DNA of 32,000 nucleotides from Candidatus Saccharimonadota bacterium (GCA_965231145.1 OZ246420.1:870001-902000); one strand, 5' to 3'. Counted from the stretch's first letter, positions 2 through 31,256 are shown. Numbers and translations are program-made. The notes: generated by a model not told the origin, from the letters alone.

Positions 2-1657
2 CTCCAGCGTGGAGTTAACGAATATATTACTATTGTGACGAACAATAAAGATGCAGCATCTGATGCTATCATTTCTCATGCAGAAGATTGGTCTATGGTG
101 CAAGATAAGCTTGGCACAGAAAACTTTGATATTGCATCGCTTCCGCTTAGCTCATGGCAGACATTGCATGAACAATATGACAAAAAAAGAGCTGAGTACC
201 AAGCGAGCATGGGTGAACGTAAGGCGCTAGAAACACAACAACTACAGACTTCTCAGGAAATTGAGAAGTTGAAAGAGCAAAGAGCAAAGAGCAAAATTAT
301 GATTGAGAATCTCGAGAACAAGCTAAATACTGACAATAGTACTATCATCAAAGATTTTGTGATCAAAAAGCAGGACCTGCTTGCTCAGCAGGAGCTTATT
401 ACTCATGAACTACCGCTAGAAGCACTTGGTCTCAGCAATGTCTACGAACTCAATACATATATCATCGAGCTGGTTCAAAAAGGAAAAGATCTCGCAAGCA
501 AGAAAGAACAAAGCAAGCAAAAATTAGACTATCTCGAAAACGATCTTAAGAAGATCGATGAACGTAAAAACGGTATTGCGCAGCAATTAGCTATTGTAGA
601 TGAGTCGCGCTCAAAACAACAGTTTTTCTGTACAAAGATTGAAGACAACTGTCCATTTTTGGAGCAGATAAACCAAGGAATGTTTAAACGTCTCGATGAA
701 CAAAAGTCTCTTTTAGAAAAAGAGTTAGCATGACTCGATAAAGAAAAAATAGAGGCCGAACGCATCAAAGCAACCAAGGAATTAGAAGATGCAAAGGACG
801 CCTATGATCGTGCCATTGAAGAGTATAAAAAATATGATTTCAAGAAAATAAAAGAACAGATAGATGAATATAGCAAGCTTGATAGAGAACGCGGTGAAGT
901 CGATAAGAAAATAACCGTGCTTGATAAAGAAAAAGAATTACAGGAGGGTTATAGGACCGAGATCATACAGCTGCAGTCTCAGATAAAAAGCAATGAAGAA
1001 AGCATGAGCACCTTGAATACTCACTTAGTAAAGCTTGATACGCAGCTCAAGAAATTGCAAGAGACAACAAACATTAATGAGCTCGACAAAGTAGAAGCAA
1101 TGCTCTCCTCTATCGCGAGAGCGACGAAGATCCTTGAGTGAATAAAAGATCTCGTCGAGACACATAAGAATAATATGCTTCTCATTAAGCAGCTCGAAGA
1201 GAGAGAAGCGATGCTTGGACAGCTCTATACGATCTTTAGTAAAGAGATCATGATCCATGTACTGCAGCAAACGCTGCCACTTTTTGCCGATGTGTTGAAT
1301 AATTTATTAGCGAAGGTAGTAGAGTATACTGTCAGCTTTGAGACAAAAAATACCGGAGAGAAATTAGAGCTCGAGATTAAGGTACATGATGCCAAGGGAG
1401 AAAGACTCGTGAAATCACTTTCGGGAGGACAAAAAACTATCCTCAGGCTCACATGGACGCTTGCTATCTGTATTTTCACTCGCAGCAATGCGCTCTTCCT
1501 CGACGAAACGATTAATAATATCGACAAAGAAACCATAGGAAAAGTCGCTGACCTTATCGATGATTTCACGAAAACACACGATATTATGTTCTATATTATC
1601 ACACACTCAGAGACTATTCAGGAGATGGAGATTTGGGATAAGGTGATTAGTCTTTAA
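2..1657 (+). CDS. SbcC/Rad50-like SMC-family ATPase, C-terminal portion (5' end lies left of the window)
   Basis: Track ORFs 35-733, 917-1141 and 1175-1657 share one frame and are separated only by in-frame TGA (731-733, 1139-1141). The frame is open from nt 2. A long E/K/Q/L-rich coiled coil is followed by the ABC signature LSGGQK and Walker B ALFLDE. TAA at 1655-1657. Confidence 0.75.
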
Positions 1658-2769
1658 AGCAAATTATTCGGCTGAAGAAATTTTTCTTTCATAGCAACAT
1701 TCAACTGGGAATAAAGATGTTTAATTTCTTTTTCATGGTTAAATTTCTTCCAATCTTCAAAAATAAGTCCTGTTGTCATAGTCAGATGTCGTAGTTTATA
1801 GTTTCACTGAGGCAGAGATCACATATTTTCGCTATATTGTTTCATGGTCTCATCTTTACGAACATTATGACTCACTCACCTATCCAACAATTTATAAAGA
1901 TGTTGTTCAAAAGCCTTGTAGACTTCCGCTCCTGTTTTTTGTGATAAAAAGTCTTCTTTTATACCATTTATAGTGACAAATCCTTTTCTCGAGTGCGATG
2001 TACTTTTCACATCAATACAATAGACAGGAACTTGCTCAAATCAATTTTTCATCGCATATCATTTATCTATAACCACAATATCTGTTTTATAGTACTGATC
2101 GAGAAGTACAGAAAACTCCTTCAATGCCCTAAAATCAAGCACAATATAATTCCCTCTAAAGCTGGGTTGTAAGAAAAATCACAGCGCTAATGCATGAGAT
2201 AATATTCCTCCTATATTTGCCTGATCACAGTAAAGATCAAGAGTTTGTAATATAGATTGAATTTCACTGGTTCAGAGAGGAGCCTTATTTTTTATAAGAT
2301 GTTCATATAAGACTACTGCCAATGACTGTTGAAAAAATATAGTTTTTGAAACTTTATATTGTTTTTCATGATATAATTCGTGACCACCGCTCTCTTTATT
2401 GAGAGCCACATAGAATGTCTTTAACTCTTCATTCAATTTTTTCTTACTTTGCTCAAGAAGCAATACAATTTTTTTAGCAATTTCTTCTTGCACCTTATGA
2501 TAAGTCTTATTATTTACTGTCATATTCTTCACAATACGAGCACGAGTATCTTCGTCAATTTCTACAGACGCGAGTTTTCATGGAATAATACTTTCTCTAT
2601 GAGAAATTTTATCGACCTTCGATCATTCATCAGAAATAGGCAAATTATCTTTTTGCATCATCTCAGAAAAGATTCTCTCTTCTTCTTTATATGTATTAAT
2701 ATTATTATTAGCTCCCATGGCACCAGAAAGATAACACAATAACAAAAACACTATATCCTTAGCAGACAT
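1654..2769 (-). CDS. hypothetical exported protein (371 aa)
   Basis: ORF 2272-2532 extends in frame through several TGA codons in both directions. ATG at 2769, TAA at 1654-1656 (4-nt convergent overlap with the previous gene). The N-terminus MSAKDIVFLLLCYLSGAMGA looks like a signal peptide. No family recognised. Confidence 0.55.
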
Positions 2770-2787
2770 AATGTCAATGCATATGAT

Positions 2788-5196
2788 TTACAGCTTAATA
2801 TTTTGTGTATTCTGACACTCTGGATACTTGTTACATGCAAGGAAGTAACCACGCTTTGATTTCTTCACATGCATCACTCATTTTCCGCATTTTTCACATG
2901 TAACTCCTCCACATTTTGCTTCAAGTTCTTCCATCTTTTCATCCGGTATCGAAGAGATCCATTTTACCTTTGGATACTCAGATGATGTCAGAAACGGTCC
3001 AAATCTTCCCATCCTTACGACGATTGTTCCACCCTCCGGACATGGCTTCCCTTCATACTTTTCACGAAGCGGCTCAAGTGTGTCTTTTTCTTCCTGTGAC
3101 TTTTCTATGTAATCACACTCTGGATATCTACTACAACCAATAAACTTTCCAAAGCGCGTAAACTTATACACAAGATCTCACTCTTCACATTTCGGGCATT
3201 TTCTTCCTACTGGTACAATCTCCTTATCTCCTTTCTTCGCTTCCGCTATAGTCTTATCAAATCCTTCATAGAACTCTTTCATCATAGCAACCCATCATTT
3301 TTTTCATTCAGCAATAGTGTCTAATTCGTTTTCCATCTTCGCCGTGAACTCATAGTTCATCAGATTGACAAAATGCTTATCAAGGAAGTCTATAACCAGA
3401 AATGCTATCTCAGTCGGATGAAGCTTCTTATCTTCTTTTTTAAGGATGTATCCTCTATCTTGGATAGTTGAAATAGTTGGTGCGTATGTTGATGGACGAC
3501 CGATACCGTATGATTCAAGTGCTTTTACGAGAGTCGCTTCACTGTATCTTGCTGGCGGACGTGAAAATGATTGTGCTGCAATGATCGCTTTTGTATGGAG
3601 TGAAGTTCCCTTTTCAATGTTCGGAAGAGTTTGTTCTCCTCCTTCCTCTTCTTCTTCATCTCTTCCGTAGAGCACAAGAAAACCTGGAAATACGACACGA
3701 AGTCCTTTTGCTACCCACTCTTGCTTTGTCCCTTCAGGATTGAATGTATATGTAGTGCTCAGTAATTTTGCACTCGACATCTGTGAGGCAACTGTACGAG
3801 CCCAGATAAGTTCATAGAGCTTCAGTTCTTGTCATCCAAGCCCACTCGACGCTGGGATACGATCAATATATGTTGGTCTGATCGCCTCGTGCGCTTCCTG
3901 TGCATTTTTACTTTTTGTTGCAAATTTTCTGACCGTCAGATATTCTTTTCCATAGGCATCCTCAATATATTTTGCTGCAGCATTGATCGCAAGTCCTGAA
4001 AGATTAACGCTATCTGTTCTCATATAGGTAATGAAACCACTTTCGTAAAGCTTCTGTGCCGTCATCATGACCTGTTTTACTGATCGTCAGAGCCTTGATG
4101 CTCCGGCTTGTTGGAGGGTTGACGTAGTGAACGGTGCGGCTGGGTTTCTGGTAGTAGTTTTTTCCCCGATATCCGTGAGTGAAAAATGGCTATCAGCCGT
4201 GTAAGTATGTATCAGTGAGCCAGTCTTTTCGTTCGTTTTGATCTCAGGATTCATATGACTCGTAAGAGTTTTCACCATCGACTCGGCATCAGCAAGCGTA
4301 GGAAGTTCCACAGATTTTCCAGCATCTTTTATGAGCTCACAAGCTAAAGAACTGTTTTTATACTCAAGATTTGTTTTCAGCGTCCATGACTCTTGTGGTA
4401 CAAACTTCTGAATCTCTTTTTCTTTTTCTACGATCAACTTCACCGCTACTGACTGCACACGTCCCGCTGAAAGACCACGTCTTATCTTCGTCCAAAGTAC
4501 TGGTGACACATTAAATCAAACCAGACGATCGAGCACACGTCTTGCCTGCTGTGCATCTACTAGGTTCATATCTATGCTTCTTGGCTTTTCTACTGCAGCA
4601 TGTATGGCTTCCTTCGTAATTTCATGAAACACAATACGTGATGTTTTTTTGATATCCAAATTTAACGCCTGGGCTACATGCCATGCGATTGCTTCTCCCT
4701 CGCGGTCCTCATCGGTTGCAAGCCAGACTTTCTTTGCAACTTTTGCATCTCTTTTGAGCTCTGCGATAACTTTTTTCTTTTCCTCAGAAATCTCGTACGT
4801 CGGTGCAAAATTGTTTTTCACATCTATACCGAGCGTTTTTTGCGGCAAATCAGACACATGTCCAAACGACGCTTTTACTTCCCGGTCTTTTCCTAAAAAT
4901 CACTTAATGGTTTTTCCTTTTGCAGGAGACTCTACGATGACCAGATTTCTTCCCGTCACATCGACTCCCGATAACGAATATGATCTCGGCGCAGCCTTTT
5001 TATCAGAAGGCTTTTCTGCCGTTTTTTTTGCTGCTTTAGTCGTTGTTTTCTTCGCAGCTCTTTTTGCGGGCGCTTTTTTTGCTTTACTCGCTATAACACC
5101 TTCTATCATGCTTTCTGTAGTGTCGCCTCATGCAACAGTTGCCTTTTTTGCTTTCGCAGCGCTTCCGGCAGAACGCGTTGTTTTCTTTACTGGCAT
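2788..5196 (-). CDS. topA: DNA topoisomerase I with Lys/Ala-rich N-terminal extension
   Basis: Six same-frame minus ORFs (2878-3171, 3304-3780, 3832-4068, 4087-4509, 4516-4857, 4900-5109) are joined only by TGA. Motifs: Toprim [42 protein letters not shown], and C-terminal zinc ribbons ([32 protein letters not shown]). ATG at 5196, TAA at 2788-2790. Confidence 0.95.
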
Positions 5197-5338
5197 ATAT
5201 CCAAAGATCGTTTAAGGAATACAAAATGAATTTGTAATATAGGCAATAACACAGTAATTGCAAGAAAGGATACTCTTTGTGCTCTAAAAATAAGAAATAA
5301 TAGCATAATATGATCTTATTATTTGCGCTCAAGGATTG

Positions 5339-5366
5339 TTGACTTAATGCTTCATTTATGTAATAT
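5339..5366 (+). promoter_or_regulatory. sigma70-like promoter for the 922-aa orphan gene
   Basis: TTGACT (5339-5344), 16-nt spacer, TAATAT (5361-5366). The first in-frame ATG after it is at 5380. Confidence 0.45.
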
Positions 5367-5379
5367 ATGCTTTCTTACT

Positions 5380-8148
5380 ATGAGCCACGTATGTATGAGC
5401 ATAGAAGCCATCTGAAACAGAGAAGAAACGAATATACATGCAGAGCTTTTCGGCATCTTTTCTCGTATGAAGAAAGAACTCCTTAGCCTACAATTTCTCG
5501 ACACAAATGACTATAAGAAATTTATCTCTATTGTGCTGACATACAGAGATCTGCTCACAGATTTTTACTTTGAGCACGACTTGGCACTGGGGGATTCTTT
5601 TAGTGATCAAATTATCAAAGAAGGCGAACAGACTGAAAAAGGATGAAAATATGGACCAATCATGAATCTCCTCCGTAAAGATCACACTAATCCACATGGA
5701 CAGTTATCTTTGGAAAATAGCGAAAAACTAGATGATATTTTCATGACCGTTCTTCATGGACAAAGCTCCACCAGTAATCTTTTAGATAAATTAATAACCA
5801 GTGATAAAACTGATGTTGTTGACGCCACACGTAAGTTTTTTACGTTTTATCTTTCGCAATTATTATGGAGTCTTTCTTATATACAAGAGGATGCAACGGT
5901 AATAGGAATTACAGATGAGACCAAACTCTCATTAGGTAATAATCTGAAGCTGCTTTCATTTGATATCAATAACAAAACGAATGCTTCCGAAAATAATGAT
6001 GTAAACTATGAAACAGTCGATTCTATTTTTCCCCATGTGTACGTCAGAAATCCAGAACATCAAGCAAATATCTTTCTTGGATACGACGCAGCACAAAAGC
6101 GCATACAAACGATACAGGAAAAAAATGCTATTAAAAAAGCTATCGAAGAAGGAGACGAATCACAAAGACTCCAAAATCCCGAAAATGGCCAGGCAAGAAC
6201 TCTTCCTACAGACATAACTTCTCTTAAGATTCTTACCAAGGAAGAACTTCCACAAAAGGAGCTTATCTATCAGAGAGTTCTAGCTTTGCGGGATTGTAAT
6301 TGATGGCTTTTTGGTCATACAGAAGGCGTCCAAACAGATCCTGCTGCACAACCTGTTGCAGAGAAAAGAGGTCGAAAACAATTTCTGAAACAAGTAGCTT
6401 ATGTCGAAGAAAAAATGCAATGACTTCCTGAAGGCATTGCAGTCAAAGAAATAGACACCATTATCTTTCGCCTACTTCATCCTTTGTATAAAAAGAATCG
6501 CAATATACAAAGGCGTACACCATTTTACCTGCCTTCATCCTGAAAGAAGTATGGAGCAAGAGCATTTTCTGAACAACTTATAAGAAAATATTGCTCGGTT
6601 CTTGGCGAAGTGAATGCACACCGTCAGAGAGGAAATAGAGAACCCAGCAAAATGTATGCACGAAAGTATGAAAGCATTAAACAATTTTGCGACAATCAAC
6701 GAAAAGAAAAATTAGCAGCTATCGAAAAAAAAGGACAACAGCTCTTCCATACAGATGAATCCATAGCCAAAAATTTATGGCGTGCACTTGGACATACTAT
6801 GTTTTCTGATGGAGATAAAGCTACCGTCATGGCACATCAGCTTCTTATGGAAGCTCCTCGGCTTGAAATGAGGGATATACAAGAACTAGTAGATGAATTT
6901 CTCAGTACGAGAGAACTGTTACAAGAGACAAAACAAAATCTCAGCGCTGCCATAGATAAAGTGGATCGTCCTCAAATAGTAAGAGAAATACAGCAAGAAG
7001 TACAAGCAGAGCGAAATGACAAATTTGTACATGACGAAAAAACTATTCAGCATATCTATTATGCAATTTTGCATCAAATAATAAATAATGCAAATATTGT
7101 TCGAAATGGGAACAAAGAAAGACAAGATTCAACTTTTGCCTCTCTCGATCTACTCCATGAAGTCTTTACTGATATGCTTATTGCTGACAGCATAGATACA
7201 AAGTGTTTAGATAAAGCTTATCAGCAGGTCTATATGCACTATAGAGCAACAGGCATAGATGCATATGGCATACAAGATATCCTTGCTCATATCAAAAAAA
7301 AGTTATCTCCCGGCATGAAAATAGATGTAGAAGATATGACTAAAGTATTGCAACGTAATTACGATGAGTATGTAAAGAATAAGATATATATTACCGGACA
7401 CGAGTATAGAGGTGCGCACTATGAGGAATTAGCAGATATTTTTGGTGTAAAACTTACTTTGCGCAAGAAAAAAACAATGGAAGACCTCCTTGTGGAGCAA
7501 ATACATACTCCTCAGAAAATAGAAGCTATAGACTATATTGGGAATAGCTATGCACAAAGATGGGGAATGGAAGACTGGACTATCGATGATACCCAAAAGC
7601 ATCTCCAAGAAAATGGATCACTTATGCTTCCCGAAAATGCAAGAGCTCAAGATATTCGCGAAATTAAAGACATAACTCCTGACCAATGGTTAGACATTGA
7701 TAGCATCGTACCTATAGGAGACTCTATCCCCCAGTTGCATTTTCAATCTCATGCAAATCGATCGAAAAATGGCATGATGGAAGGGAATTATGTGCTTTGG
7801 TATAACGCGCAAACCGGCATGCTCGAACTCGTATATGATACTACCTTGAGAACTCATTATGATATTATGGAACAGTATAATCTGCATCCTTCCTCTATAC
7901 TGGGAGGTGGTTATGCAACTATTAATAAAGGACTGCAAGAAATATTACTTGAGTCCTATATGCCGACATTCCTCCACGAGCCAAGAATCATCTCTGTAGT
8001 AGCATTTAAAAATGCTTTCAAAGAAATACTACCAGACGCAAAAATCATTATCGGTGAAGATGGCATGCAAAATATCGAACATCATTTCGATAGAGAATAC
8101 GATAAACCCAAAGAGCCTGTAGAAAACCCTGACGAATTGCCATTCTAA
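5380..8148 (+). CDS. large hypothetical cytoplasmic protein (about 922 aa), no recognisable domain
   Basis: ORFs 5662-6303 and 6610-8148 are in the same frame. The frame stays open from before 5347 to TAA 8146-8148, with TGA at 5413, 5644, 6301, 6421 and 6541. Candidate starts are ATG 5347, 5380, 5395 and 5467; 5380 was chosen because it follows a TTGACT-N16-TAATAT promoter. No signal peptide or TM segment. Confidence 0.6.
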
Positions 8149-15691: not shown

Positions 15692-18516
15692 TTGACAATA
15701 TGAGTTGGTGAGGTATTGATACGTATATTACCAGCACCGTTGAGCAAGACTGCTCTGACTTTGTCTCCCGCTTTGAGATCTGCACTATCTTGGACATACG
15801 GACATGGGCATGATTTGCATATAGGCTGGATCGATGCTTCGGAAAGTTCTGGTTGCATACCAATCGCATCAGGACAGCCATCATTATCAGAAATACCATT
15901 GTAGTTTTCTGGAGTATCCGGACACGCATCTTTGAGGTCAGAGATACCATCAGCGTCTCTATCTGAGTCTAGACGGATAAGGTTCTCACATCCATCTCCG
16001 ATGAAGTTTCCGTTTTTATCGGTCTGATCTGGACGAGGACTTACCGGACATTTATCGAGTCCCGCTCACTGGCTGATCAGATAAATGCTTTCTGCAAGGA
16101 TGCTATTATTCAAGTCAGTGGTAGCATAGCTACAGCTTACAGGCTGTGTGACGATAAGTCACAAAAGATTTTTTGTACCATCACCATTGATGTCGTCATC
16201 ACATATATCAGGAATAGCGTCTTTATCCATGTCACATGCGCCTCATAAGGTCGACTTTTGGAGGCAGATAGGCGCACCGGTTACGGTAATATGAGCCTCA
16301 GGATAAAATCGTAATCCATCGGTTTTCTGTACACGCGCAGTCACGCGATAAATACCAGGATTGAGATAAGTATAATTGAAGCCGTTTTGAAGAGCGCCAG
16401 TAAAGACGCGAACTTGTCCGTCTCCCATGTCGATGATACTGCGAGAGATGGTTGTTGGATCGATACCATTGAGAATAAAGCGATAGTTTGTCGATTGGTT
16501 GGTAGACATCACCAGTCTTTCCGGAAGAATATCTACTCCTTGGTCGGTGATCTTGTCAGCAGATGCAACATCCACGTTTATGATGTTTTCCAACTGAGTA
16601 CCATCGAGAAGATAGATAGTTTGTTTCACAATCTTAGGTCCTGCAGTAGTGTAGGTATAAGGCTGAGAAAGCGATGCATTGGTACGGACAGTCTCGTCGC
16701 CAAACTCCCGACGGATAGAAGCGATATCTTTATTTGCTATGCCCGCTGTTATTGTAGAAAATGTAAGCTGCGTACCAACGGTTGGTGTAAGCGTCGATGC
16801 TTTGAGATATGATCCCACTGCCCCGTCAAACGAGACAGACGCTTGTGAATACGCCACAATTTGTGTATTGTTATATGCCTTCGCTATGACAAGATATGTA
16901 CCTCCCGCATTATAGATAAACGACATACGTTGTCCGTCGGTTCCTCTCCTTCATGTACCATTTGTTTGTCGATCAATATGTCCAACAGTACGTGATGTCT
17001 CAGGCGCAAAGGCAATGGTAGCAGGAGACTGTGCCGCAAGGGAGCTAGGTATAATTTGAAATCCAAATGTTGGCTTTGCAGAAACTGCTATGCTTATGGT
17101 AGTAGTTGCGAGATAGGTGCGACTACCTCATTTCGCAGTGAGTACAACACTATAAATTCACTCTCCGGGAAATGTATGTGATATTGTTCTTCCTACGCCA
17201 TATGTTCCATCTCCGAAATCCCATGCGAAATCTGTGAGCGCACCGCTATAATTTGCAGCGAGCGCATAAGTATTGCTTCCTCACTTTCTCGTGACGATGC
17301 TCAGACCAAAACGAGTGCTGTCTGAACACGCATCACCTACTCATGTCTTATTTACATCTGCCTGATCGGCGTTTGCGACGAATAAACAATTATCAAGCCT
17401 ATCGGTAAAAGCATCTAACGAATGCGTATTGATATTTCACTTATCATCGACGATACCCACAGGATTTTTTACGGCATCTCCATCTATATCCTCATCACAC
17501 ACATCTCCGATACCATCTTGGTCCATGTCCTTTTGTGAAGGATTATAGATCAAATAGCAGTTATCACTATAGTCTTTTAGTCAGTCGAAATCCTTATCAT
17601 TGCTAAATTCACATGATACCTTCTCTTTCACCTGACTTAACGATCTTAGCACAGTCTTTCCATCAACGTAATCATTGACATTGATATCATTCGCTTCGCT
17701 CTCCGTTAATACACCTTCGAGCACAAGAACATTGAGCTCAGCGACGGGCCAGAAATTTTCTTCTGCACTGTCCCGTTCCTGCATACCACATGCATTGAGA
17801 TTAAATGTACAGTATTTCATATATGCCGCAAATTCCTCTGTTCAGCGGAGCGAACAACTTCCTGTTGTACACGCAACGGCTTTACGACGTATAAGTGCTT
17901 GCTCAGGAAGCGTCAGATATCTTTGGACTATCTGCTTGTTTTCTGCACTATCAACCCACTGCTGTACTTGCTTCCAGTCCACCTGATAGTGCGCACTGAT
18001 ACGATCAGCGAGCATATTTATGACTACCTGAAGAAAATCAGCAACAGTAGTATTGTTTGTTCAACAAAATTTTCCACTACACAAAGGACTGGTCTGTCTT
18101 GGATATCATGCCATGTATCACTGCGCTGCAACATATGCGGCACAGTAGTAATTATTAGTTTTACTGAGCGAGCTGCTATATGAAACATCATCGAAATTAA
18201 CTCATGGAGAAACACGAAAGCTATTCCATCGAGATGATGTAAGAGCATCTATCAGCTCATCTCATGGTCTATGGCAATCATGACAATCGACATAATTGAG
18301 CAGCTCAGCAAGATCATTTCTAGAAACAACCGACGCGTTTTCGATAGCTTGGGCATCGACATAAATAGCACTGAGTGAATCAATAAATTCCTCATAGCTC
18401 GCCGAAACTACTCCCGACAATGCGAGCAGACTCATACCTGCGAGAACAACTCTTTTCAAAAACATACTATTGCCTAATAATAAAGCAGCTAGCACATAGC
18501 AGACGGCATATAGCAT
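15688..18516 (-). CDS. large secreted surface protein with PKD-like domains, thrombospondin type-3 (calcium-binding) repeats and possible SLH-like N-terminal motifs
   Basis: ORFs 18262-18516, 17581-17820 and 16243-16926 plus the intervening sequence form one frame with about 15 TGA codons (translated end to end without TAA/TAG). Signal-like MFLKRVVLAGMSLLALSGVVSA (alternative ATG at 18465). TSP3-type runs: DQDGIGDVCDEDIDGD, DSDRDADGISDLKDACPDTPENYNGISDNDGCPD. PKD-like: FAWDFGDGTYGVGRTISHTFPGE-G-IYSVVLTAK. TAA at 15688-15690. Confidence 0.8.
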
Positions 18517-18564
18517 GCTACTTGCCAGTTACCAACCGCTCGTTGCTCTGTGAGAAAAACATTA

Positions 18565-19377
18565 TTATCTGATTTGAAAGAAAGCACTTGTAGCACAATT
18601 TTCCTGACATTCAAATCCATTGAGCTTATAGGTATTGCCATACTTCATAACATATGCAAACCATGTTTCATCGTACACTTTTTGTGTTGCACCTACAAGG
18701 TAGTGAGTCTTATATTGTACCACCATGGCATTTGGATTTCTTTGTGCAAGTGGATGATCAATCACCGCATTTACTTCACTGATCTGTAAATCTCCAATAA
18801 TATTTTTCTTCCAGTTCTGGAGTCTATTAACATTGAAATACGTTCTCAATCCCGGTACATTTGTAAAATTTGCATCGTACATTGCTGGGATCTGATCAAA
18901 CTGCTCTTGATTGAAATACATGTAGAAATTTTCGACCATCCTTTGTGCATCTACAGGAAATGTACCAGTAGAGATATTCATACCTGTCGCAACTGTTGCT
19001 CCTGTTGTAGATGTTGTACCGGTATTCATATCTCCTGATGTCGTAAGAGCATCTCATGTCATCTGACTATTTGTAGGCTCTTCTTTGTTCACTTGAATAT
19101 AGATACCTGTCACCACAAGAAGCGCTCCAAGGGCAAGAACAATGAGAGATAAGAAATTATTTTTCTTAAATGATGGATATTGCGTTGTGAGATCGTCCTC
19201 CCAAAGACCTGCCATATCATCTATAGCATTTCTTGTTTTGGCTTTCTTAAATGCCTTAGCGGGGCGCGTTGACTTGGTTTTAACAGAAGTGGTCTTTTTT
19301 ACCGGAGCAGAACGACGAGCAGATTTACTTGCCGAATTAGCGGAAGTTTTTTTTGCAGGTGTTTTTTTTGCGGGCAT
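18565..19377 (-). CDS. single-pass membrane protein: Lys-rich cytoplasmic tail, TM helix, T/G-rich linker, extracytoplasmic globular domain (possibly NTF2-like)
   Basis: ORFs 19054-19377 and 18565-19029 are joined by TGA at 19054-19056. N-terminus MPAKKTPAKKTSANSASKSARRSAPVKKTTSVKTKSTRPAKAFKKAKTR. TM helix FLSLIVLALGALLVVTGIYI. TAA at 18565-18567. Lies 48 nt upstream of the surface-protein gene on the same strand. Confidence 0.7.
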
Positions 19378-21314: not shown

Positions 21315-21342
21315 AAAAAACATTCCTAACGGAATGTTTTTT
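21315..21342. terminator. bidirectional terminator between the SET gene (+) and the NUDIX gene (-)
   Basis: aaaaaacattcc-taac-ggaatgtttttt. Confidence 0.8.
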
Positions 21343-21727
21343 ACGTATGCTTCCTAATGAACTCTAGCAGATACGGCGTAAGTCATTTTTCCAATGCTGC
21401 ATCTTTTGTCGTCCACATATATTCTTCATGCTCCTCACTGAGATGAATTGCATGTTCAGGCGTCGTCCCTTTATACCCTAAAAATACAACATATTTATCC
21501 TCATCTTTATCATATGACGAAATACATTCTATCATCTGCAAAGAGTGTATATGAGTAAGTCACGTTTCTTCTTTGATCTCACGAATGAGTCACTCCTCTA
21601 TGGTCTCTGGCAGCACAACAGCACCTCATGGCAGATCTCGCATTTTATTGCCATATGATCTTTTCAAAAGCAGCAGATTTCCATCAGTATTAATAACAAT
21701 AATTTTTGCATGAATAGTAATCTGCAT
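21341..21727 (-). CDS. NUDIX hydrolase (128 aa)
   Basis: Nudix box LP-G-GAVVLPETIEE-G-LIREIKEET-G-L with TGA at the conserved glycines. ATG at 21727, TAA at 21341-21343. Confidence 0.85.
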
Positions 21728-22193: not shown

Positions 22194-22820
22194 ATGGAAG
22201 CAAAAGAGATCATGGATGCATTACAGTGGCGTTATGCGACAAAGAAATTTGATACAAGTAAAAAACTCGAAGAAGATAAGTTGCATACGATACTTGAAGC
22301 AGGAAGACTTGCTCCATCTTCTGCTGGCTCTCAGCCATGGAAGTTTGTAGTTATAACAAACCCTGAACTTAAAGCGAAACTTGCACCTCATGCGTATAAT
22401 CAACCACAGGTGACAGACTCTTCACATTTGATAGTCCTCTGCTCTGTGATAAACTTTGATGAAGCCTATATTGATAGTCATATTGACCTCACAGCAAACA
22501 TAAAATGAATAAGTCCTGCCGACCTTGCAGGTTATAAAAATATGCTTATGGGACATACGACAAACACAGCGAACTGGCTAAAACATCAGGCATTTATACC
22601 GCTTGGCATGATGCTTATGGCAGCTGCAGAACTCAAGGTGGATGCTGCTCCTATGGGAGGATTCAATCCTGCTGGATTTGATGAAGTTCTTTGACTCACA
22701 GAAAAATGACTAACATCAGTAGTAATCATGGGACTCGGTTATAGAAGCGATGATGATGCAGCCGCATTACAACCTAAAGTCAGATGGCCGGAAGAAAAAG
22801 TGATTATACGTATGGACTAA
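22194..22820 (+). CDS. NAD(P)H nitroreductase family protein (208 aa)
   Basis: ORF 22194-22508 continues through three TGA codons. Motifs: RYATKKFD, LEAGRLAPSSAGSQPWKFVVI, AAPMGGF. TAA at 22818-22820. Confidence 0.88.
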
Positions 22821-23509
22821 GCAGCATCAGATATATTATGTACTTCTCTTTTGAATATATCTCAACGATCTGCATAGTTTTCAAATAAATCAAAGCTTGC
22901 AGCCGCTGGCGAAAGCAAAACTGTATGATCGGGATATGCAAAATTTTTCGCTGCATGTACTGCCTCTTTCATAGAGGCCGCTTCAAATATATTATCTACA
23001 ACAGTATTAAATACTCTTGCGATCGCCTTGTTATCTTTACCAATACAAACGATATTTGTCACTTTTTCTTTCACAAGATCTCTAATTTCTTCATACCTAT
23101 CTTCCTTTTGCTGTCCACCTAAGATAAGTACTGTCTCTGTTGTTAGCTTCTCAAGTGAAAACCACGTTGAGTTAATATTCGTAGCCTTACTATCATTGAT
23201 ATAATCCACACCATGTTTCTTGGCGACATACTCAAAGCGATGCTCTTCAAACTGAGGAGGTTGAAACACTTCACGAAATTGCTCTTTACGAAGATCATAT
23301 ATATTGTTTACTGTACGCGCAGCCAATCCTTTTCACTGATCTATGAAATGATGACCTTCAAAGTCACGAACCGAAAACCCACGAGAACGTTCAGACGACA
23401 AAATACTACCCAACTGCTTCGCATAAAGTCTATTAAGCTCCTTAATACTGATGCCCGGATAGCACTCAAGGAGTTGATCTAATGAAACAATTCACGTATT
23501 CATTTGCAT
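22817..23509 (-). CDS. MurD-like Mur-ligase C-terminal domain protein lacking the N-terminal and ATP-binding domains (truncated gene or stand-alone domain)
   Basis: ORF 22862-23326 extends through TGA codons to ATG 23509/23503 and to TAG 22817-22819. Motifs: EEHRFEYVAKKHGVDYINDSKATN, LILGGQQKED, VLLSPAAASFDLFENYADR-G-DYF. No P-loop, and only about 170 nt of AT-rich spacer upstream before the pirin gene. Confidence 0.7.
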
Positions 23510-23680: not shown

Positions 23681-24391
23681 ATGAGTATAAGCATACAACG
23701 TTCACACGAAAGATGACACGCAAACCACGGGTGGCTTGACGCCAATCACAGTTTTTCATTTGCGAGTTATTACAACCCAAAGAAGATGTGATTTGGCACA
23801 TTAATCGTCATAAACCAAGATACGATCCAGTGATGATATGGCTTTCCATCTCATCCCCACGACAACATGGAAATCATCACCATTCCTCTCTCATGACGTC
23901 TGGCACACAAAGACAGTACTGGCAAAGAAGAGACTATCGGCTATGGAGATGTACAAGTTATGTCAGCATGAACTGGCGTCGTCCATAGCGAGTACAATGC
24001 TTCAAAGAGCGTGCAAACTCACCTGTTACAAATCTGGATACTACCACATACACAGTGAGTTGCTCCAAGACATGATAGTAAATCATTTGATTTTAATAGC
24101 AGAAAAAATACACGAACACTTCTTGTAAGTGACGATGGACGCATGGATAGCCTCATGATCCATCAACACGCATTCGCATCCATTTCGACACTGGAAGAAG
24201 GAAAAACAGTAGAGTACAAAAAATACCGTGAGCAAAACGGTATCTATCTATTTGTGATTTCTGGAAAAGTGAATGTGTGAAAAGACACCCTCAACAAGAG
24301 TGATGCGATGGAAATAGTTGATGAAGATGGCATTGTAATTAATGCATGAGAAAAGAGTCAGGCATTGATATTAGAAGTTCCGATGAAATAA
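23681..24391 (+). CDS. pirin-family (YhhW-like) bicupin protein (236 aa)
   Basis: Translation: [95 protein letters not shown]. ATG at 23681, TAA at 24389-24391. Confidence 0.9.
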
Positions 24392-24416
24392 AAAAAGAGC
24401 CATATGGCTCTTTTTT
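24390..24416. terminator. bidirectional terminator between the pirin gene (+) and the UbiA/crt operon (-)
   Basis: aaaaaaagagcc-atat-ggctctttttt. Confidence 0.8.
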
Positions 24417-24493: not shown

Positions 24494-25348
24494 CTATAAA
24501 ATATTCCACAACACCATAAAGAAAAGCAGCATCCCACTGAGCGCATTGATCCGAGGAAATCGCTTATAGAAAGCAAATAGTTTTGTAGTTTTGTAGTAGC
24601 GCAACGACAATAGCATCATCATGCAATATATCGCAGACATGATGATAATAATCCATCCTCAGAATGAAAAAGAAAGAACGCCAGCAACTGCATATAATAC
24701 GAAACAGAGAACCAATGTTCACTTTGCCCCACATAACGTTGCGATCGTTGGTACTCATGCGTCCGCATCTGCTTTAATATCAGGAACAGCTGAATACGCA
24801 TGCATAGCCATTGCCCACAGCACTCACGCGACAATATAATAATAGTTCAAAGGCTCAGAAGGTGCAACTAACAGAAATCAAAATGCTGCAGTTGCAATGT
24901 AATGTCACGCGCTAAACAAACTATCAAGTATTGGCCTCCCCTTTGCCCTGATCGGAGTTGCAGAGTATTGGGCAGAAAAAAAAAGAAACAGAAGAAAAGA
25001 AATATACGTGGCAATAGTGAGAGGAAGGACAAACAAAAACGGGATTGTTGTTCCAATGATTCGCGCCCATAATTTTTTATGCTCCTTGGGTTCAACAAGC
25101 GCCTCATATCCCTGTTTTTTAGGGTTGAGTTTATCTGTCTCATAATCGTAGATATCATTGATACCATAGATCCAAATATTTGCTGGCACGAGAAAATATA
25201 ATCCAAAAACTAGGATGCGTCGTAATTCGAGGTCTGTCCATGTAAGAGACAGTGCGAACATTGCACTCAGTATTCCTATCATAAATGGTCATAGCTCATA
25301 GATCCAAAATCTTGGTCTTGAGATACGCATTACTCTTTGAAAACGCAT
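24494..25348 (-). CDS. UbiA-family polyprenyltransferase adjacent to crt genes (lycopene-elongase-like position)
   Basis: ORF 24905-25282 extends both ways through about 8 TGA codons. N-terminus MRFQRVMRISRPRFWIYEL-G-PF. First Asp-rich motif NDIYDYETD; second SAVPDIKADADA-G-VPTIATLCGAK. Multiple TM helices. ATG at 25348 (13 nt after the crtB stop), TAG at 24494-24496. Confidence 0.8.
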
Positions 25349-25361
25349 GATGATAAGATAA

Positions 25362-26213
25362 TTAGTAAAAGTATTTCCACATATGAGAGAGCACGATACG
25401 AAGTTTATCTCTTTTTGTGGTTTTTGCAGAATACGCAAAGATATTATAATCACATTTTTCTATTTTTCTCAAGATACCCTGATAGAGCTTTGCTGAAAGA
25501 TAAATAGCATTTCTTGTCTGTCGAGGGAGATACTGTAGTCATTGGAGAGCAAGCTCGTAGAGCGCATCTGCACGTGAGATCTGAAAGCGCATATACTCTC
25601 TTCGGGATGAGTCGATCTCACTAGTTGTCATATATCTTTCTATATCCTCATGCGACAACCCAAATGCTTTCATATCTTCAAGTGGCATATAGATACGACC
25701 GAGATCAACATAGTCCTCTTTGACATCACGCAGAAAGTTTGTAAGCTGCATTGCCTCTCCGAGGGTTCTTGCGTAAGGCAAAGCACGATCATCATGTTCT
25801 CCTAACACATAACACATCATTTCACCCACCACCATAGCAGATCCATACATATACGTTTTCAGCTCTTCATAGGTATTATAGCGAAACTTTTCTGTATCCA
25901 GCAGCATAGCATCCCAGAAAGCTCTACTCAATGCAAATGGAATATCATGCCTATAAAACAACCTTACCGCATCTCATCGGGTTTTATGCAATACATCTCT
26001 ATCGCTATATGCTTTCTCCCATTCCTCCCACATCTTCAGAAGTTCTTTTTTTGCGGAGTCAGCATCCTGATCTTTTACATCAACAACAAGATCGGGTATA
26101 CGTACAAATGCATACAGCGTCATCACATCATCTTTTATAGATGCAGGAAAAAACAAAGTAGCATAATAATAACTCGTCCCATACTTTTTCATGTAAAACG
26201 ATGTCTGCTGCAT
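25362..26213 (-). CDS. crtB: phytoene/squalene-synthase family enzyme (CrtB-like; a C30 CrtM type cannot be excluded)
   Basis: ORFs 25974-26213 and 25539-25961 plus the tail are joined by TGA. Motifs: YYYATLFFP, LYAFVRIPDLVVD, YMYGSAMVVGEMM, QLTNFLRDVKEDY..GRIYMP. The ATG at 26211-26213 overlaps the crtI TAA by 1 nt. TAA at 25362-25364. Confidence 0.88.
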
Positions 26214-27694
26214 TAGTGGTTTTTACGCGCTAAAACTCTTTGAGCAGTGAGTTCACCTGAGATAAGACACATCTGAGTCCCTATTCCCGGATTAGTATAC
26301 GATCATGTATAATAGAGTCATTTTACTTTTTTACTATAATTATTTGGTCTGAGTACTGCTGTTTGCATCAGAGTATGCGCTATACCTAGGGCAGTTCATT
26401 TATATGCATTATATCTTTCTGAAAAGTGTTTCATATGAAAAAGCCTTTTAAATTCGATGCGACTTTTCAAGTCAGGTATATGGCACACATCTGCTATCAT
26501 ATCGAGAACTTTCGCCGTATAAATTTCCTCTTCTTGCTCTGTCAGGATAACACCCGGCGCACAAGGAACTAACACAAACATATTTTCCTTACCAACTGGC
26601 GCAACGGAATCATCTGTTTCGCTTGACTTACAAATATACATAGAAGGATCTGTTGGTAATATTTTCTTTTCAAAGATCTCATCGAAGTTTTTCTTCCAAT
26701 CCTGCGTAAAGATAAGATTATGATGAGTAAGCATAGGAAGTTTCCCATCTACTCCAAGATAAAGGATATATGCTGATGGCGCGAGAGTTTTCTTTTTCCA
26801 GTAGCTTTCCGGATAGGTCTGTTCTTCTTTATCTAACATATGAGTCTCCGTAAACCGCATATCAGCATTTGAAACTACGATATTCGAATGAATATGTTTC
26901 CCACTTTCCAACATAATTCCGGTTACCTTTTTTTTCTCTGTGATTATCTTTTTTACTGGAGCATTAGTATATATTTCTACACCATTTTTTTCAGCAATAT
27001 TTTTCAAAGACCTGATTATTTCATAAAGCCCTCCTTGTGGATACCATACTCATTGTGCGAAATCTACATGAGACATAAGCGAATAGATGGCCATAGCATC
27101 GTATGGCGATGTCCCAAGGAATAATAGTGGATAACTTACTATTTTCTGCATTTCCTCTGTCTTAAAAAATCACTTTACATAGGAATGCATCTTTTGAAAC
27201 ACATTGAGTTTTAGTCCCTGGATTGCAGTATCAAGAGAAAAGAAATCCAAGAAAGAATCATAATTTCTGTAGACAAATTTTTCCAGCGCTACTGTATACT
27301 GATATGAAGCGCGGCGAAGATACTCCTTAAAAGGCTTACTCACACCTGGTTCTATTTTTTCAAATGTAGCAAGATCTTTTGACACATCAGCAGCCACATC
27401 CACTATGCGGTTTTGTGGAGTGAAAAATATTCTATAACTAGGAGAAAGTTTTGTCAGCTTCAAATGAGCATCAATATCTTCCTGTACTTCCTTATAAAAA
27501 CGCTCGAAAACATCCGGCATAAGATACCAGCTTGGTCACATATCAAATCTATATCCATTCTCTTCTAAAAGAGACGCTCTTCAACCAACTTCTTCATTTT
27601 TTTCATAAAGACAAACTTTATATCATGCGCGCGCAAGAAATATTGCACAACTCAACCCTCCTATTCCTCAACCAATCACTATCGCTTTTTCCAT
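26213..27694 (-). CDS. crtI: phytoene desaturase family FAD oxidoreductase (CrtI-like; CrtN type cannot be excluded)
   Basis: Same-frame ORFs 27170-27520 and 26396-27007 plus flanks are joined by at least 9 TGA codons. Motifs: MEKAIVIG-G-GIGGLSCAIFLARA-G-YKVCLYEKNEEVG-G-RASLLEENGYRFDM-G-PSWYLMP, FLGTSPYDAMAIYSLMSHVDFAQ-G-VWYPQGG, C-terminal TNPGIGTQMCLISG. ATG at 27694, TAA at 26213-26215. Confidence 0.9.
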
Positions 27695-27710
27695 CTGTTC
27701 TGTCTAATAG

Positions 27711-29093
27711 CTAAATAATATGTACTAATTCAGCAATATGCTTGATCCTTGTATAATCTATAACCGCCATACTCTCGCCCATCTCTTTCTTTCTTTTTTC
27801 GTGAAGCTTTGTCGGAAGAATCTGTCAGCCAAGGCCAATCTCCCCAAGGAATAATAAATTTTTATCGACTACCACATTTTTAAACTGTGAATAAATACCT
27901 GCTGCGATTGCGAGATCGAGTCCGCTGTCGTGAAACGAAAACTCTCACGGGATATTTACAAAGACGTCGAACCATCAAAGCTTCGCTTTGAGATATCTCT
28001 CAAGGATAGCGATAATAAGATCAACACGTTTGCCCTCCACTCCGACAACCTGACGCACAGGAAATTTTCCTTGAGTTTTATTGAGCAGGACTTCAAGATG
28101 TACAACAACAGGACGACCATTATCTATCCCTACAGTTAATACTGATCATGGAATAGTCAAATTTGCTGATCAGACGATACGTTCTTTGAGATCATAGACA
28201 GGCTTGAGTCAAAATAATGTCATCTCGAATATTGCAATCTCATCCGTACTTCAGAAACGATTTTTCATGTAACGAAGGATACGATATTGACCATAGCGAT
28301 CTCATTCCAAGTATAAAACTGCATCGACTAAATGCTCCAGATATTTTGGTCCTGCGATCTCTCCTCCCTTGGTTACATGACCGATGATAAGCGTCGTGAT
28401 ATTTTTCTTTTTGCTAAGTTCTGCTATCTTCTCCGCACAATATTTCACCTGCGCTGGGCTTCAGGATGCACCTTCGAGATTGCCTGATGAGATCGTTTGG
28501 ATAGAGTCAATGATGATGACCTGATACTGCCCTGTTTCTGCTGTAAGAAGGATATCTTCTACACTATTAGAGTGATATATATCAAATTCAGATCATGGGT
28601 TATGGGTTATAGGTTTACCTGCCGTGGTAGATCATAGCTTATTTTCTGTATCAGCATCAGTCGACTGTATCTCCTTATTTCATTCGTAATTCGTAATTTG
28701 TCATTCGTAACTAGTAAGCCTATGCTGTCTATCGACGATTTGATCACTCTGTTCTTCACCAGAAAAATATGCTATACGCACATTAGTCAGTTGATGGATA
28801 ATCTGGAGCGCTATAGTAGACTTGCCAATTCCTGGCTCTCCGCCTAGAAGATAAACTCATCACTCCTTGAGTCACTTTGGAAACAAACGAATGAGTTCCT
28901 GATCTTGCAATGAAAAATATGATGATCATTTTTTCTCTGTCATTTCAAGCGACTGTCATGTAGTCACTCATCATTTCTTCTTTCATACTCCAATAATTCC
29001 GGCTGCCGACACAAAAGAACCAAATGCTCCACACTCCGGACATTTTCCTAGTTTTATCGCACTCGCATTGCCACACTCACTACACACATACAT
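27711..29093 (-). CDS. radA: DNA repair protein RadA/Sms (460 aa) with a repeat-derived internal insertion
   Basis: Absent from the track because of 21 in-frame TGA codons. N-terminal zinc ribbon CSECG..CPECG, Walker A LLGGEPGIGKST, IIIDSIQ, GHVTK-GG-EIAGP, KNRF-G-STDEIAIFEM, and a Lon-like C-terminal domain (VFVNIP-G-E...LDLAIAAGIYS). ATG at 29093, TAG at 27711-27713. Confidence 0.92.
28681..28708. repeat. tandem heptanucleotide tract inside radA (cattcgt aattcgt aatttgt cattcgt)
   Basis: Four period-7 units, translated on the minus strand as ..YE-G-QITNYE-G-N... A second tract, atgggtt atgggtt ataggtt, lies at 28595-28615. Confidence 0.7.
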
Positions 29094-29174
29094 CTCACCT
29101 TCACGATACAAAATAAAGATAAACTCAGTCTATTCATCTCACAGAAGGATGCAACACCACCACTCATATATAAT

Positions 29175-29201
29175 AAAAAAGAGGAGATAATTCCTCTTTT
29201 T
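29175..29201 (-). terminator. terminator after the polyprenyl synthase gene
   Basis: aaaaaagagga-gataat-tcctcttttt, overlapping the TAA. It separates the synthase transcript from radA-crtI-crtB-ubiA. Confidence 0.7.
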
Positions 29202-30282
29202 AGATATTTCTCAAAAGATCTATGACCGCCTGGAAGTTCTCCTTATATGACTCAACTGGAAGTGTCATTTTCTTTAAAAGCTTTTCTGCTTCAGTCAGAT
29301 ATTCTTCCACACACTTTTTACCATAGGCAATTGCTCCACTATCAATAAACACCTGGCGCAACTCATCAATCTGCTGCTTTGAGAGCCTCTTTCCCATAGC
29401 GCTACTTATCGCAAGACGATGTGCATACTTTCCTTGGTCATAGATATATTGGGTAAGATATGTCTGCTGGCCATCCTGTATATCAGAGAACTTTGTTTTG
29501 TTATCGTAATGTGTAGTCTCATCCCCCTCTTCGACCATCACATCGAGAAGATCATCACGCATTTGGTATGCTTTTCCTAACACTTCACCAAGATAATCAA
29601 ATTTTTTACAAAGAGCCTTATCTGCTCATGCAAGAAGCGCTCCCGTTAAGATAGGTCTTACAAAAGTATATTTCCCTGATTTATAATGATTTTTTTTCTC
29701 CAATAATTGTTGATCAATATTGTCTCCTACCATAATATCTACATCAATAATCTGCCCTGCTATCACCTCTTCAATCGTCTCCTGTACATTTTTCTGTGCA
29801 GCAGCAAGATATGGTACATGTATAGATGGATACACGCTGTAGAGAATTTCATAGACCCATGAAAAAACAAGATCTCCCATAAGAATCGCCTGAGAGATAC
29901 CTATATGATCTTTATTTGTTGACGATAAAAGTCATGATACAAATTTATGGTACGTATGCACCCCATGTCTTAGCTCCCCCCTATCTATAATATCATCATG
30001 GATCAAAGCCATCTCATGAAGCAACTCATGCGTCTGTGCAAATTGTATTATCTCTTTGTCGGCAGTTCATCCACACGCCTTATAAGCAAGATACACAAGA
30101 TACGGTCTTACACGCTTGCCACCACTAAACGTAAAATCATCAATATATGCAACAATTTGTTGCATCCTTGGAGAGGAAGCTATTTTCTGCGATTGTTTTA
30201 CTTTCGCAGCGATGTATTTTCTGAGTTCTTTATCAAATATTTGCTTAAATGCTTTGATGTCCATCAGTTTGGGCTTTTTCAA
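29200..30282 (-). CDS. polyprenyl diphosphate synthase (FPP/GGPP synthase type, 360 aa)
   Basis: Same-frame ORFs 30067-30282, 29626-29880 and 29200-29583 are joined by TGA. GKRVRPYL, first Asp-rich motif LIHDDIID, second QMRDDLLD. TAA at 29200-29202, followed by a hairpin. Confidence 0.9.
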
Positions 30283-30331: not shown

Positions 30332-30359
30332 AAAAACTCAGCTAATATGCTGAGTTTTT
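30332..30359 (-). terminator. terminator after the InsA-like gene
   Basis: aaaaactcagc-taatat-gctgagttttt, an 11-bp stem overlapping the TAA at 30358-30360. Confidence 0.75.
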
Positions 30360-30657
30360 AATGTGAACACTGAGTACAATTTCATTTATGTTTCTTCGCC
30401 CATGCAATGATCGTAGAAGTCGAAAGAGAAAATTTTTCTGCGACGCTGCGAGCATCATTACCTGTATGACAGTACTCATCAACGACTTGCTGACGAAATC
30501 ATTCGTCATAGGTTCCTCTTGCTCCGCCTACCGTAAAATGTTTGCGGCAATCGCCGCAACGAAATCTCTGTCCGCCCGTGGGAAGCTGTCCGTTTTTTTG
30601 AATGCGACCGCTGTGACAGAATAAACAATCTATAAGACGTTTGAGATGTTTTTTCAT
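30358..30657 (-). CDS. IS1 InsA-like zinc-ribbon plus HTH protein with no adjacent catalytic transposase ORF
   Basis: Translation: MKKHLKRLIDCLFCHSGRIQKNGQLPTGGQRFRCGDCRKHFTV...FRQQVVDEYCHTGNDARSVAEKFSLSTSTIIAWAKKHK. This is the pattern C-x2-C..NG..G.QR..C..C. ATG at 30657; reads through TGA at 30499 and one more. TAA at 30358-30360. Confidence 0.55.
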
Positions 30658-30710
30658 GATGATATCTAATACAAAGAACGCCCCGAGTGTACACACCCGA
30701 GGCAAAAAGT

Positions 30711-31256
30711 CTATCTTTTTTTCAAAGAAACCGTGAATTTATTTTTAAGTCCCAATCTACGGAGCACGGCATCTCTCCACCAAAATGAAATAGTCACGAA
30801 AACAATAATAGCACCAAGCGCGACAAATTCTACTGTCTCACTCCCCGCTTCTTCGTGCTCATGAAGTTCAAAGCCAATAAGACGTGGAACGATATGCAAC
30901 AAGACAATATGTGCGATAAGTATCAACGTAGAAATCGAAAAGAATTTTCCTACTGACTGCGCTGTGTTATCATTATGCTTTGACCATCTATGGATCCACC
31001 ACCAATTAATGATTGCAAGAAGAATAACACCTAACAAATGGATACCTTGTAATACTCCCTCATAACCAATCATATCTTGCCAGCTCATATGATTTACCGC
31101 CGCGATGATGATAAGTTCAATAGCAAGAACGAGAATATTATAGATTATCGTTGCGATGCAGATCGGATGCTCCTTGAGATGCTTCCGGGAAAGATCGTGA
31201 TGATGATTGTGTGCGTGCATAGAGAGTATTATTTTAAGATGAATAATAAAGAACAT
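30711..31256 (-). CDS. four-TM membrane protein with His-rich N-terminus (HAHNHHHD)
   Basis: Intact ORF with no TGA. ATG at 31256 or 31220, TAG at 30711-30713. Four hydrophobic segments, Trp-rich loop INWWWIHRW. No family recognised. Confidence 0.55.
   Translation of the reverse strand: MFFIIHLKIILSMHAHNHHHDLSRKHLKEHPICIATIIYNILVLAIELIIIAAVNHMSWQDMIGYEGVLQGIHLLGVILLAIINWWWIHRWSKHNDNTAQSVGKFFSISTLILIAHIVLLHIVPRLIGFELHEHEEAGSETVEFVALGAIIVFVTISFWWRDAVLRRLGLKNKFTVSLKKR

Follow-up and report, generated by a model that had tools for sequence, protein, structure and literature searches.

A probable code-25 version of the Patescibacteria-wide carotenoid gene set, with C45/C50 carotenoids as predicted products

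By the usual account, members of the candidate phyla radiation (CPR, Patescibacteria) cannot make membrane lipids. A group of genes resembling a carotenoid pathway in a Candidatus Saccharimonadota bacterium (GCA_965231145.1, OZ246420.1:870001-902000; this whole 32-kb stretch of DNA is referred to here as the window) raises the question of which pigment such an organism might build and how it came by the genes. A previous reading made from the DNA letters alone (the sequence-only reading) proposed a carotenoid cluster of the lycopene-elongase type in a recoded genetic code, consisting of a polyprenyl diphosphate synthase (pps), a desaturase (crtI), a phytoene synthase-like gene (crtB) and a UbiA-family prenyltransferase (ubiA), with the repair gene radA among them. 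Here, family models, alignments and comparisons with related loci were used to reassess this proposal. The locus is probably the version, in a lineage using genetic code 25, of a carotenoid gene set found across Patescibacteria, with predicted C45/C50 products.

The genetic code was considered first, as every gene boundary depends on it; coordinates and spacings below refer to the minus strand of the window with TGA read as glycine. Under translation table 11, the region from 23.5 to 32 kb falls apart into dozens of short open reading frames (ORFs). With TGA as a sense codon, long and tightly packed ORFs appear throughout the window, and five of them on the minus strand lie exactly where the sequence-only reading had placed them:

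29200-30282, minus strand: pps, short-chain trans-polyprenyl diphosphate synthase, probable geranylgeranyl diphosphate (GGPP) synthase (CrtE role)
29176-29201, minus strand: terminator-like hairpin, stem of 10-11 pairs followed by a T-run, overlapping the pps stop codon
27711-29093, minus strand: radA, DNA repair protein RadA/Sms, a neighbor of the pathway and not a member of it
26213-27694, minus strand: crtI, CrtI-family phytoene desaturase, nearest to the haloarchaeal bifunctional CrtI/CrtD ("CrtID") type
25362-26213, minus strand: crtB, CrtB-type phytoene synthase
24494-25348, minus strand: ubiA, LyeJ-type UbiA prenyltransferase, predicted lycopene elongase/1,2-hydratase
24391-24416, no single strand: bidirectional terminator-like hairpin in the gap that separates ubiA from a convergent pirin gene, with an 11-pair stem and a T-run on each strand

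The spacings were also reproduced, with 16 nt between the radA stop and the crtI start, a 1-nt overlap of the crtI TAA and the crtB ATG at 26213, and 13 nt between crtB and ubiA. Both proposed terminators, after pps and after ubiA, correspond to terminator-like hairpins, and the region holds 13 such sites in all, compared with 4.7 ± 2.1 in shuffled sequences. For pps, the ATG at 30264 is the more likely start codon than the TTG at 30282, because the resulting 354 aa equal the length of its orthologues in two related loci (L001 and L084). When aligned to standard-code homologues, six of the nine TGA codons of crtI fell on columns with 94% glycine or more (70 homologues) and five of the seven in ubiA on majority-glycine columns, and none in either protein fell on a tryptophan column. 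Database homologues from recoded genomes carry tryptophan at family-invariant glycine positions, as expected when TGA is translated as tryptophan. The locus is thus written in genetic code 25 (TGA = Gly), in agreement with the sequence-only reading. Its further remark that all four pathway genes carry many such codons applies to ubiA (7) and crtI (9), as well as to radA (21), but not to crtB (2) or pps (3).

The putative elongase was assigned using calibrated family models. The UbiA protein matched PF01040 (74 bits) and reached 222.9 bits on NF009516 (PRK12875), above the curated cutoff of 205. As a haloarchaeal reference, the crtI/D-prenyltransferase-cruF-crtB cluster on a Halocatena salina plasmid (NZ_CP096020, L082) was scored on the same models; because its protein at the lyeJ position obtained 426 bits, NF009516 was taken as a LyeJ-type model, on which a Paceibacteria homologue scored 242 and the window protein 223. 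On the CrtEb-type model NF009608 (PRK13105), where an Arthrobacter homologue scored 469 bits, the window protein failed (161 bits, cutoff 217), and other UbiA subfamily models gave far lower scores. From the pass on one model and the failure on the other, calibrated on the Halocatena and Arthrobacter proteins, the window elongase is assigned to the LyeJ (acyclic, bacterioruberin-series) type and not to the CrtEb/decaprenoxanthin type, with elongation and hydration as its predicted activities. Both of its motifs (NDIYDYETD and DIKADADAG) are intact and occupy columns that are invariant in 22 homologues. JGI annotation names homologues "lycopene elongase/hydratase". In the window, crtI lies two genes upstream of ubiA in the same direction. 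This linkage is kept in at least 74 related loci. Relatives were sought in 185,579 species, each represented by a single genome, with a UbiA-subfamily alignment as the query; the locus counts for standard-code Patescibacteria and Acidobacteria refer to the best 80 of 437 matches.

The other three enzymes were scored likewise. CrtI passed the family model TIGR02734 (crtI_fam; 493.6 bits, cutoff 238) and carries an N-terminal FAD-binding motif, VIGGGIGG (GxGxxG), at residues 6-13. On NF058655, which describes the bifunctional phytoene/3,4-desaturase CrtID, it obtained 603.8 bits, a near miss of the equivalog cutoff of 640, compared with 750 for the Halocatena reference, to which it is 43% identical, and 624 for a Paceibacteria homologue. 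Among solved structures, CrtD (4REP, 251 bits) was matched better than Pantoea CrtI (4DGK, 209 bits). By these scores, the desaturase appears closest to the bifunctional CrtI+CrtD "CrtID" type, a name that rests on knockout and complementation of Haloarcula japonica C0507 and D1086 (PMC11946383). CrtB matched PF00494 (SQS_PSY, 203 bits), and its aspartate-rich motifs (IPDLVVD and RDVKED) are both intact. On CrtB equivalog models it scored at most 145 bits against cutoffs of at least 480, with the CrtB of the haloarchaeal bacterioruberin cluster likewise below the cutoffs; the assignment rests on genomic context, with crtB adjoining crtI in approximately 66 related loci. The polyprenyl synthase matched PF00348 (138 bits) with intact DDIID and RDDLLD motifs, its nearest solved structure is the GGPP synthase of C. 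glutamicum (3LK5, 108 bits), and the residues at positions -4 and -5 before the first aspartate-rich motif (FARM) are Ala and Met, neither of which is aromatic. It is a probable GGPP synthase in the CrtE role.

The substrates, products and role that we infer for the gene set take the following form. The polyprenyl synthase would provide GGPP, two molecules of which CrtB would join to phytoene, and the CrtI-family desaturase would convert phytoene to lycopene, also introducing 3,4-double bonds should it share the bifunctionality of its nearest characterized relatives. The LyeJ-type UbiA would then add a C5 unit from dimethylallyl diphosphate (DMAPP) onto C-2 and hydrate C-1 at one or both ends, giving C45/C50 carotenoids of the bacterioruberin series, acyclic and hydroxylated, up to (dihydro)bisanhydrobacterioruberin. 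The formula of bisanhydrobacterioruberin is C50H72O2 and that of bacterioruberin C50H76O4. In haloarchaea and Arthrobacter, bacterioruberin acts as an antioxidant and photoprotectant and controls membrane rigidity and fluidity; a likely role of the predicted products would be that of a membrane-embedded antioxidant, photoprotectant or membrane stiffener. Classification as a lycopene-elongase type of cluster was borne out by the LyeJ-position model and by the agreement of enzyme families and motifs, as was the proposed absence of a cyclase, since none was found among the genes of the 32-kb window. Searches of the window also found no cruF, rhodopsin, mevalonate (MVA) or methylerythritol phosphate (MEP) pathway gene. 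CruF is the bisanhydrobacterioruberin hydratase and is specific to the bacterioruberin series. In tblastn, 19 CruF sequences gave only noise in the window, and no cruF (PF04240) was found in the flanks of recoded relatives; because it is absent from both, full bacterioruberin is not predicted from the locus.

Three known systems were compared with this arrangement. The haloarchaeal bacterioruberin cluster (Haloarcula japonica c0507-c0505; Halocatena salina, L082) shares CrtB, a CrtI/CrtD-like desaturase and a LyeJ-type UbiA with the window, and in both the genes are adjacent and a cyclase is absent. The two differ in that the window has no cruF, its CrtI stays below the CrtID cutoff and identities are only 33-43%; in addition, the gene order is crtI-crtB-ubiA instead of crtI-lyeJ-cruF, and the genes sit in a host-dependent bacterium with a tiny genome and code 25. 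The C50 clusters of actinobacteria (crtEb/lbtBC/crtE2; decaprenoxanthin, C.p.450 and sarcinaxanthin) also place a UbiA elongase beside crtE-crtB-crtI and add C5 units to lycopene, but they include cyclase subunits of the crtYe/Yf type that are missing from the window, and the UbiA of the Arthrobacter locus (L083) fits the CrtEb-type model that the window protein fails. The ORF of this Arthrobacter protein (L083 5638-6837, 399 aa; Arthrobacter sp. StoSoilB13 replicon NZ_AP024649) has an N-terminal hydrophobic extension of ~110 residues ahead of the UbiA domain, and the stretch that carries it has no listed genes in the PLSDB gene table for NZ_AP024649. The third system is a pps-crtB-crtI + ubiA cluster in Patescibacteria and Acidobacteria, which has the same four families at 45-57% identity to the window (28-39% for pps) and among whose Patescibacteria sequences those of the window branch. 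In the standard order of this cluster, the other genes converge on ubiA, whereas the recoded order is co-directional (crtI-crtB-ubiA), with pps detached by radA or other genes and TGA read as Gly.

The distribution of this third system is broad. A relative of the UbiA subfamily is encoded in 437 species-representative genomes, and the best 80 comprise 64 standard-code genomes, five TGA-recoded genomes and 11 Acidobacteria. Nearly all of the 64 are labelled as Patescibacteria (Paceibacteria, Saccharibacteria, Nomurabacteria and Parcubacteria), with a few generic or other labels. The trio of ubiA, crtI and crtB was found together in 51 of the 64 standard-code Patescibacteria; among the recoded genomes 5 of 6 carry it, and among Acidobacteria 10 of 11. 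A pps gene is also present directly beside crtB-crtI in 41 of the 64 standard-code Patescibacteria loci, the usual layout being pps, crtB and crtI on one strand, convergent with ubiA; the recoded lineage retains a crtI-crtB-ubiA core with pps a few kb away. The cluster has cruF as a neighbor in 10 of 11 Acidobacteria, 8 of 64 Patescibacteria and none of the recoded loci. As side observations, the CruF ORF measures ~430 aa in Acidobacteria against ~255 aa in Patescibacteria, and two recoded loci (L005 10857-12908 and L012 ~4231-6540) have the order crtB-ubiA-crtI, with an apparent insertion of ~125-245 residues between the N- and C-terminal halves of CrtI, which in L005 is a single ORF of 683 aa.

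Within this group, the recoded sequences form a single clade among Patescibacteria in neighbor-joining trees of UbiA and CrtB. Comparisons of the window with two recoded relatives (L002 and L004) gave pN values of 0.15-0.31 and saturated pS values of 0.75-0.82, so that pN/pS (0.18-0.45) is reported in place of dN/dS. On account of the single clade and of saturated pS with low pN, the cluster is old in the recoded lineage and is inherited vertically under purifying selection. Synteny with recoded relatives reaches well beyond the cluster, and CrtI is 80% identical in L002, a Candidatus Absconditabacterales metagenome-assembled genome (MAG) and the nearest genome with a name. The window probably derives from a Patescibacterium of the Absconditabacterales type. 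The argument of the sequence-only reading against a recent transfer from a standard-code donor is strengthened by the recoded clade and the saturated synonymous sites, in addition to the TGA codons on conserved glycine columns. On a wider scale, the sequences from Acidobacteria (L024, L034, L048, L067, L070, L072, L079 and L081) form one clade within Patescibacteria, next to carriers of cruF, and this placement suggests that the cluster was transferred between Acidobacteria and Patescibacteria.

The presence of radA in the gene order had led the sequence-only reading to propose a combined protection module, i.e., a functional stress operon in which radA and the crt genes would jointly guard against photo-oxidation and damage to DNA. 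Besides a RecA-like ATPase bearing the KNRFG motif, the RadA protein has a Zn-ribbon and, at its C-terminus, a ChlI/Lon-like domain; it scored 332 bits on TIGR00416, below the cutoff of 403. Its 21 TGA codons, in 460 codons, account for ~40% of its glycines, far above the neighboring genes, and it has a low-complexity insertion of ~35-50 residues relative to the 424-431-aa orthologues of L001 and L084. Co-transcription of radA and crtI in the window genome is plausible because the 16-nt gap is short, no terminator separates the two genes and terminators flank the four-gene unit (upstream of radA and after ubiA), and the same gene order recurs in L001/L004 and L084. However, radA lies upstream of crtI only in these recoded loci and in the window. 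Three other recoded loci of similarly close kinship, whose CrtI is 72-80% identical (L002, L085 and L086), carry an ABC transporter gene in its place, and in L002 radA is found on the opposite strand, 1.5 kb past the pps end of the gene set and ~6.7 kb from crtI. Across recoded genomes, the check on synteny thus recovered a conserved crtI-crtB-ubiA core with a variable upstream gene. As the adjacency is confined to one sub-lineage and radA is a near-universal housekeeping gene, the position of radA most likely reflects local rearrangement and not functional coupling, and a dedicated stress operon appears doubtful.

A looser association with repair was observed by analogy in the wider group, where a uvrA, uvrB, uvrC, photolyase or photolyase-related gene lies within ~8 kb of the cluster in 22 of the 64 standard-code Patescibacteria loci. 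These include a photolyase gene 17 bp from the cluster (L025, L033, L059 and L060), uvrA 2-24 bp from pps (L025, L033, L055 and L060) and a photolyase-related PF04244 gene 48-449 bp away (L013, L040, L045, L047 and L053). Many of the loci with ultraviolet (UV) repair neighbors are close relatives of one another and hence non-independent, and a connection of the cluster with light-damage repair is only a lead.

Several results weigh against the C45/C50 pathway as set out above. All product-specific NCBIfam synthase models remained below their cutoffs for pps and do not assign its chain length; the CrtI score below the CrtID cutoff makes 3,4-desaturase activity a guess; and the 32-kb window contains no pathway gene for isopentenyl diphosphate (IPP) or DMAPP, although supply through the mevalonate pathway is plausible by analogy with freshwater Gracilibacteria MAGs, which usually encode it (PMC9166423). 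A cruF gene may also lie elsewhere in the genome, as reported for a Saccharibacterium from Lake Baikal (PMC9948471), and bacterioruberin itself would then be the end product. With regard to the elongation step, the window UbiA shares only 34% identity with its counterpart at the haloarchaeal lyeJ position and passes the NF009516 cutoff narrowly. To our knowledge, none of the bacterial members of its subfamily has been biochemically characterized. These last points would fit a pathway that ends at C40 (e.g., at lycopene), with UbiA prenylating another acceptor or only hydrating and no C45/C50 pigment being made. Linkage of ubiA with crtI and crtB in ~66 loci from three bacterial groups argues against such an early end, as do the cruF genes beside ubiA in Acidobacteria (10 of 11) and in eight Patescibacteria loci and the far lower scores of the remaining UbiA subfamily models. 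We therefore regard an end at C40 as improbable and retain elongation to C45/C50 as the preferred reading.

The same gene set could in principle make C30 carotenoids from farnesyl diphosphate with enzymes of the CrtM/CrtN type. Pfam does not separate CrtB-like proteins from CrtM, the structural matches of the window CrtB include CrtM (54-57 bits, vs 70 bits for phytoene synthase) and, as noted, pps stays below the cutoffs of all product-specific models. The desaturase, however, scored 604 bits on CrtID and 264 on a CrtD model, while a diapophytoene-desaturase model is absent from the best 25 of its 103 NCBIfam matches. Moreover, the nearest solved synthase makes GGPP, and LyeJ-type enzymes, to which the partner belongs, have C40 carotenoids as their known substrates. 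C40-based chemistry is favored by these comparisons, which leave C30 products very unlikely.

The least tenable alternative is a squalene/hopanoid-type set (HpnC/D/E), or a contig that was mis-binned or recently gained from a standard-code donor. The top NCBIfam match of the CrtB-like protein is indeed HpnD, but its 162 bits are far under the cutoff of 279, HpnC reached 134 against 250 and HpnE, at 52 bits against 283, is a non-match. Since the CrtB of the haloarchaeal bacterioruberin cluster also has HpnD as its best match (193 bits, below cutoff), this match is undiagnostic of squalene chemistry and was rejected as a sign of it. With TGA-Gly codons throughout, synteny with Absconditabacterales MAGs over more than 15 kb, a single recoded clade and saturated synonymous sites, these explanations are contradicted and have next to no chance of being correct.

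Beyond the carotenoid gene set itself, three further features were described in its surroundings:

30711-31256, minus strand: His-rich membrane ORF with several hydrophobic segments, directly upstream of pps in recoded relatives
30358-30705, minus strand: small Zn-ribbon/helix-turn-helix ORF with an InsA-like N-terminus (PF03811, 26.9 bits; PF01527, 21.8 bits)
21341-21727, minus strand: MutT-like NUDIX gene (128 aa), 2.8 kb from ubiA in the window

Homologues of the His-rich membrane ORF lie beside pps in all recoded relatives with sufficiently long flanks (L001/L004, L002, L084 and L085). It matched no Pfam or NCBIfam family, a remote relationship to CruF was rejected (hhalign probability of 3%), and it is no more than a candidate member of the pathway. 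The Zn-ribbon/helix-turn-helix ORF sits between this gene and pps; because L001 has a 98-aa equivalent at the same position, it was considered a conserved neighbor and not an obvious mobile element. In the closest relative, a homologue of the NUDIX gene directly follows ubiA (L084 13235-13621). A function as type-1 IPP isomerase was rejected, as the protein resembles hydrolases of the MutT/NudI type and Idi models were unmatched. Between ubiA and the NUDIX gene, the window also holds genes for a pirin, a nitroreductase and an HxlR regulator, and this stretch as a whole loosely suggests redox stress functions. An AA_kinase gene near pps in L085 was likewise dismissed as an isopentenyl phosphate kinase because of its UMP (uridine monophosphate) kinase motifs. 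Elsewhere, a 230-aa ORF (22817-23509, minus strand) encodes the C-terminal domain of a Mur ligase alone, which is stand-alone in L084 too (18373-19110), and no Pfam family was matched by the ORFs at 5323-8148 (plus strand, 941 aa) and 1654-2769 (minus strand, 371 aa).

How unexpected the locus is can be judged from its relatives. The sequence-only reading had considered a pigment pathway surprising in CPR, a view that finds no support, as the cluster is widespread in Patescibacteria and is annotated in public MAGs, where proteins of the carotenoid cluster are already named in Absconditabacterales and Paceibacterota, and as a 2023 study had described lyeJ, crtD and cruF in Lake Baikal Patescibacteria (PMC9948471). 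Its expectation that isoprenoid genes are out of place in CPR fared no better, given that the mevalonate pathway is a usual component of Gracilibacteria MAGs (PMC9166423). In a literature search, no description was found of the carotenoid cluster in code-25 lineages or of its breadth across Patescibacteria.

Taken alone, the window adds little, as it extends a known and vertically inherited cluster to a lineage in which TGA encodes glycine. The more useful outcome is the wide spread of the cluster in Patescibacteria, set against its sparse discussion, and interest lies mainly in this group-wide pattern and less in the single locus. It is possible, though we would not yet call it likely, that membrane-spanning C50 carotenoids of the bacterioruberin type are produced by Patescibacteria themselves, code-25 Absconditabacterales among them. 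These would be the first known membrane lipids of their own in organisms regarded as incapable of lipid synthesis, formed by an old pathway that was exchanged with Acidobacteria and is tied to protection against light and UV, as the photolyase and uvrABC neighbors in many lineages suggest. If so, C50 carotenoids would be one of the few membrane components that Patescibacteria build themselves and, provided the route is real, the pigment may serve as a marker for enrichment and microscopy of these bacteria.

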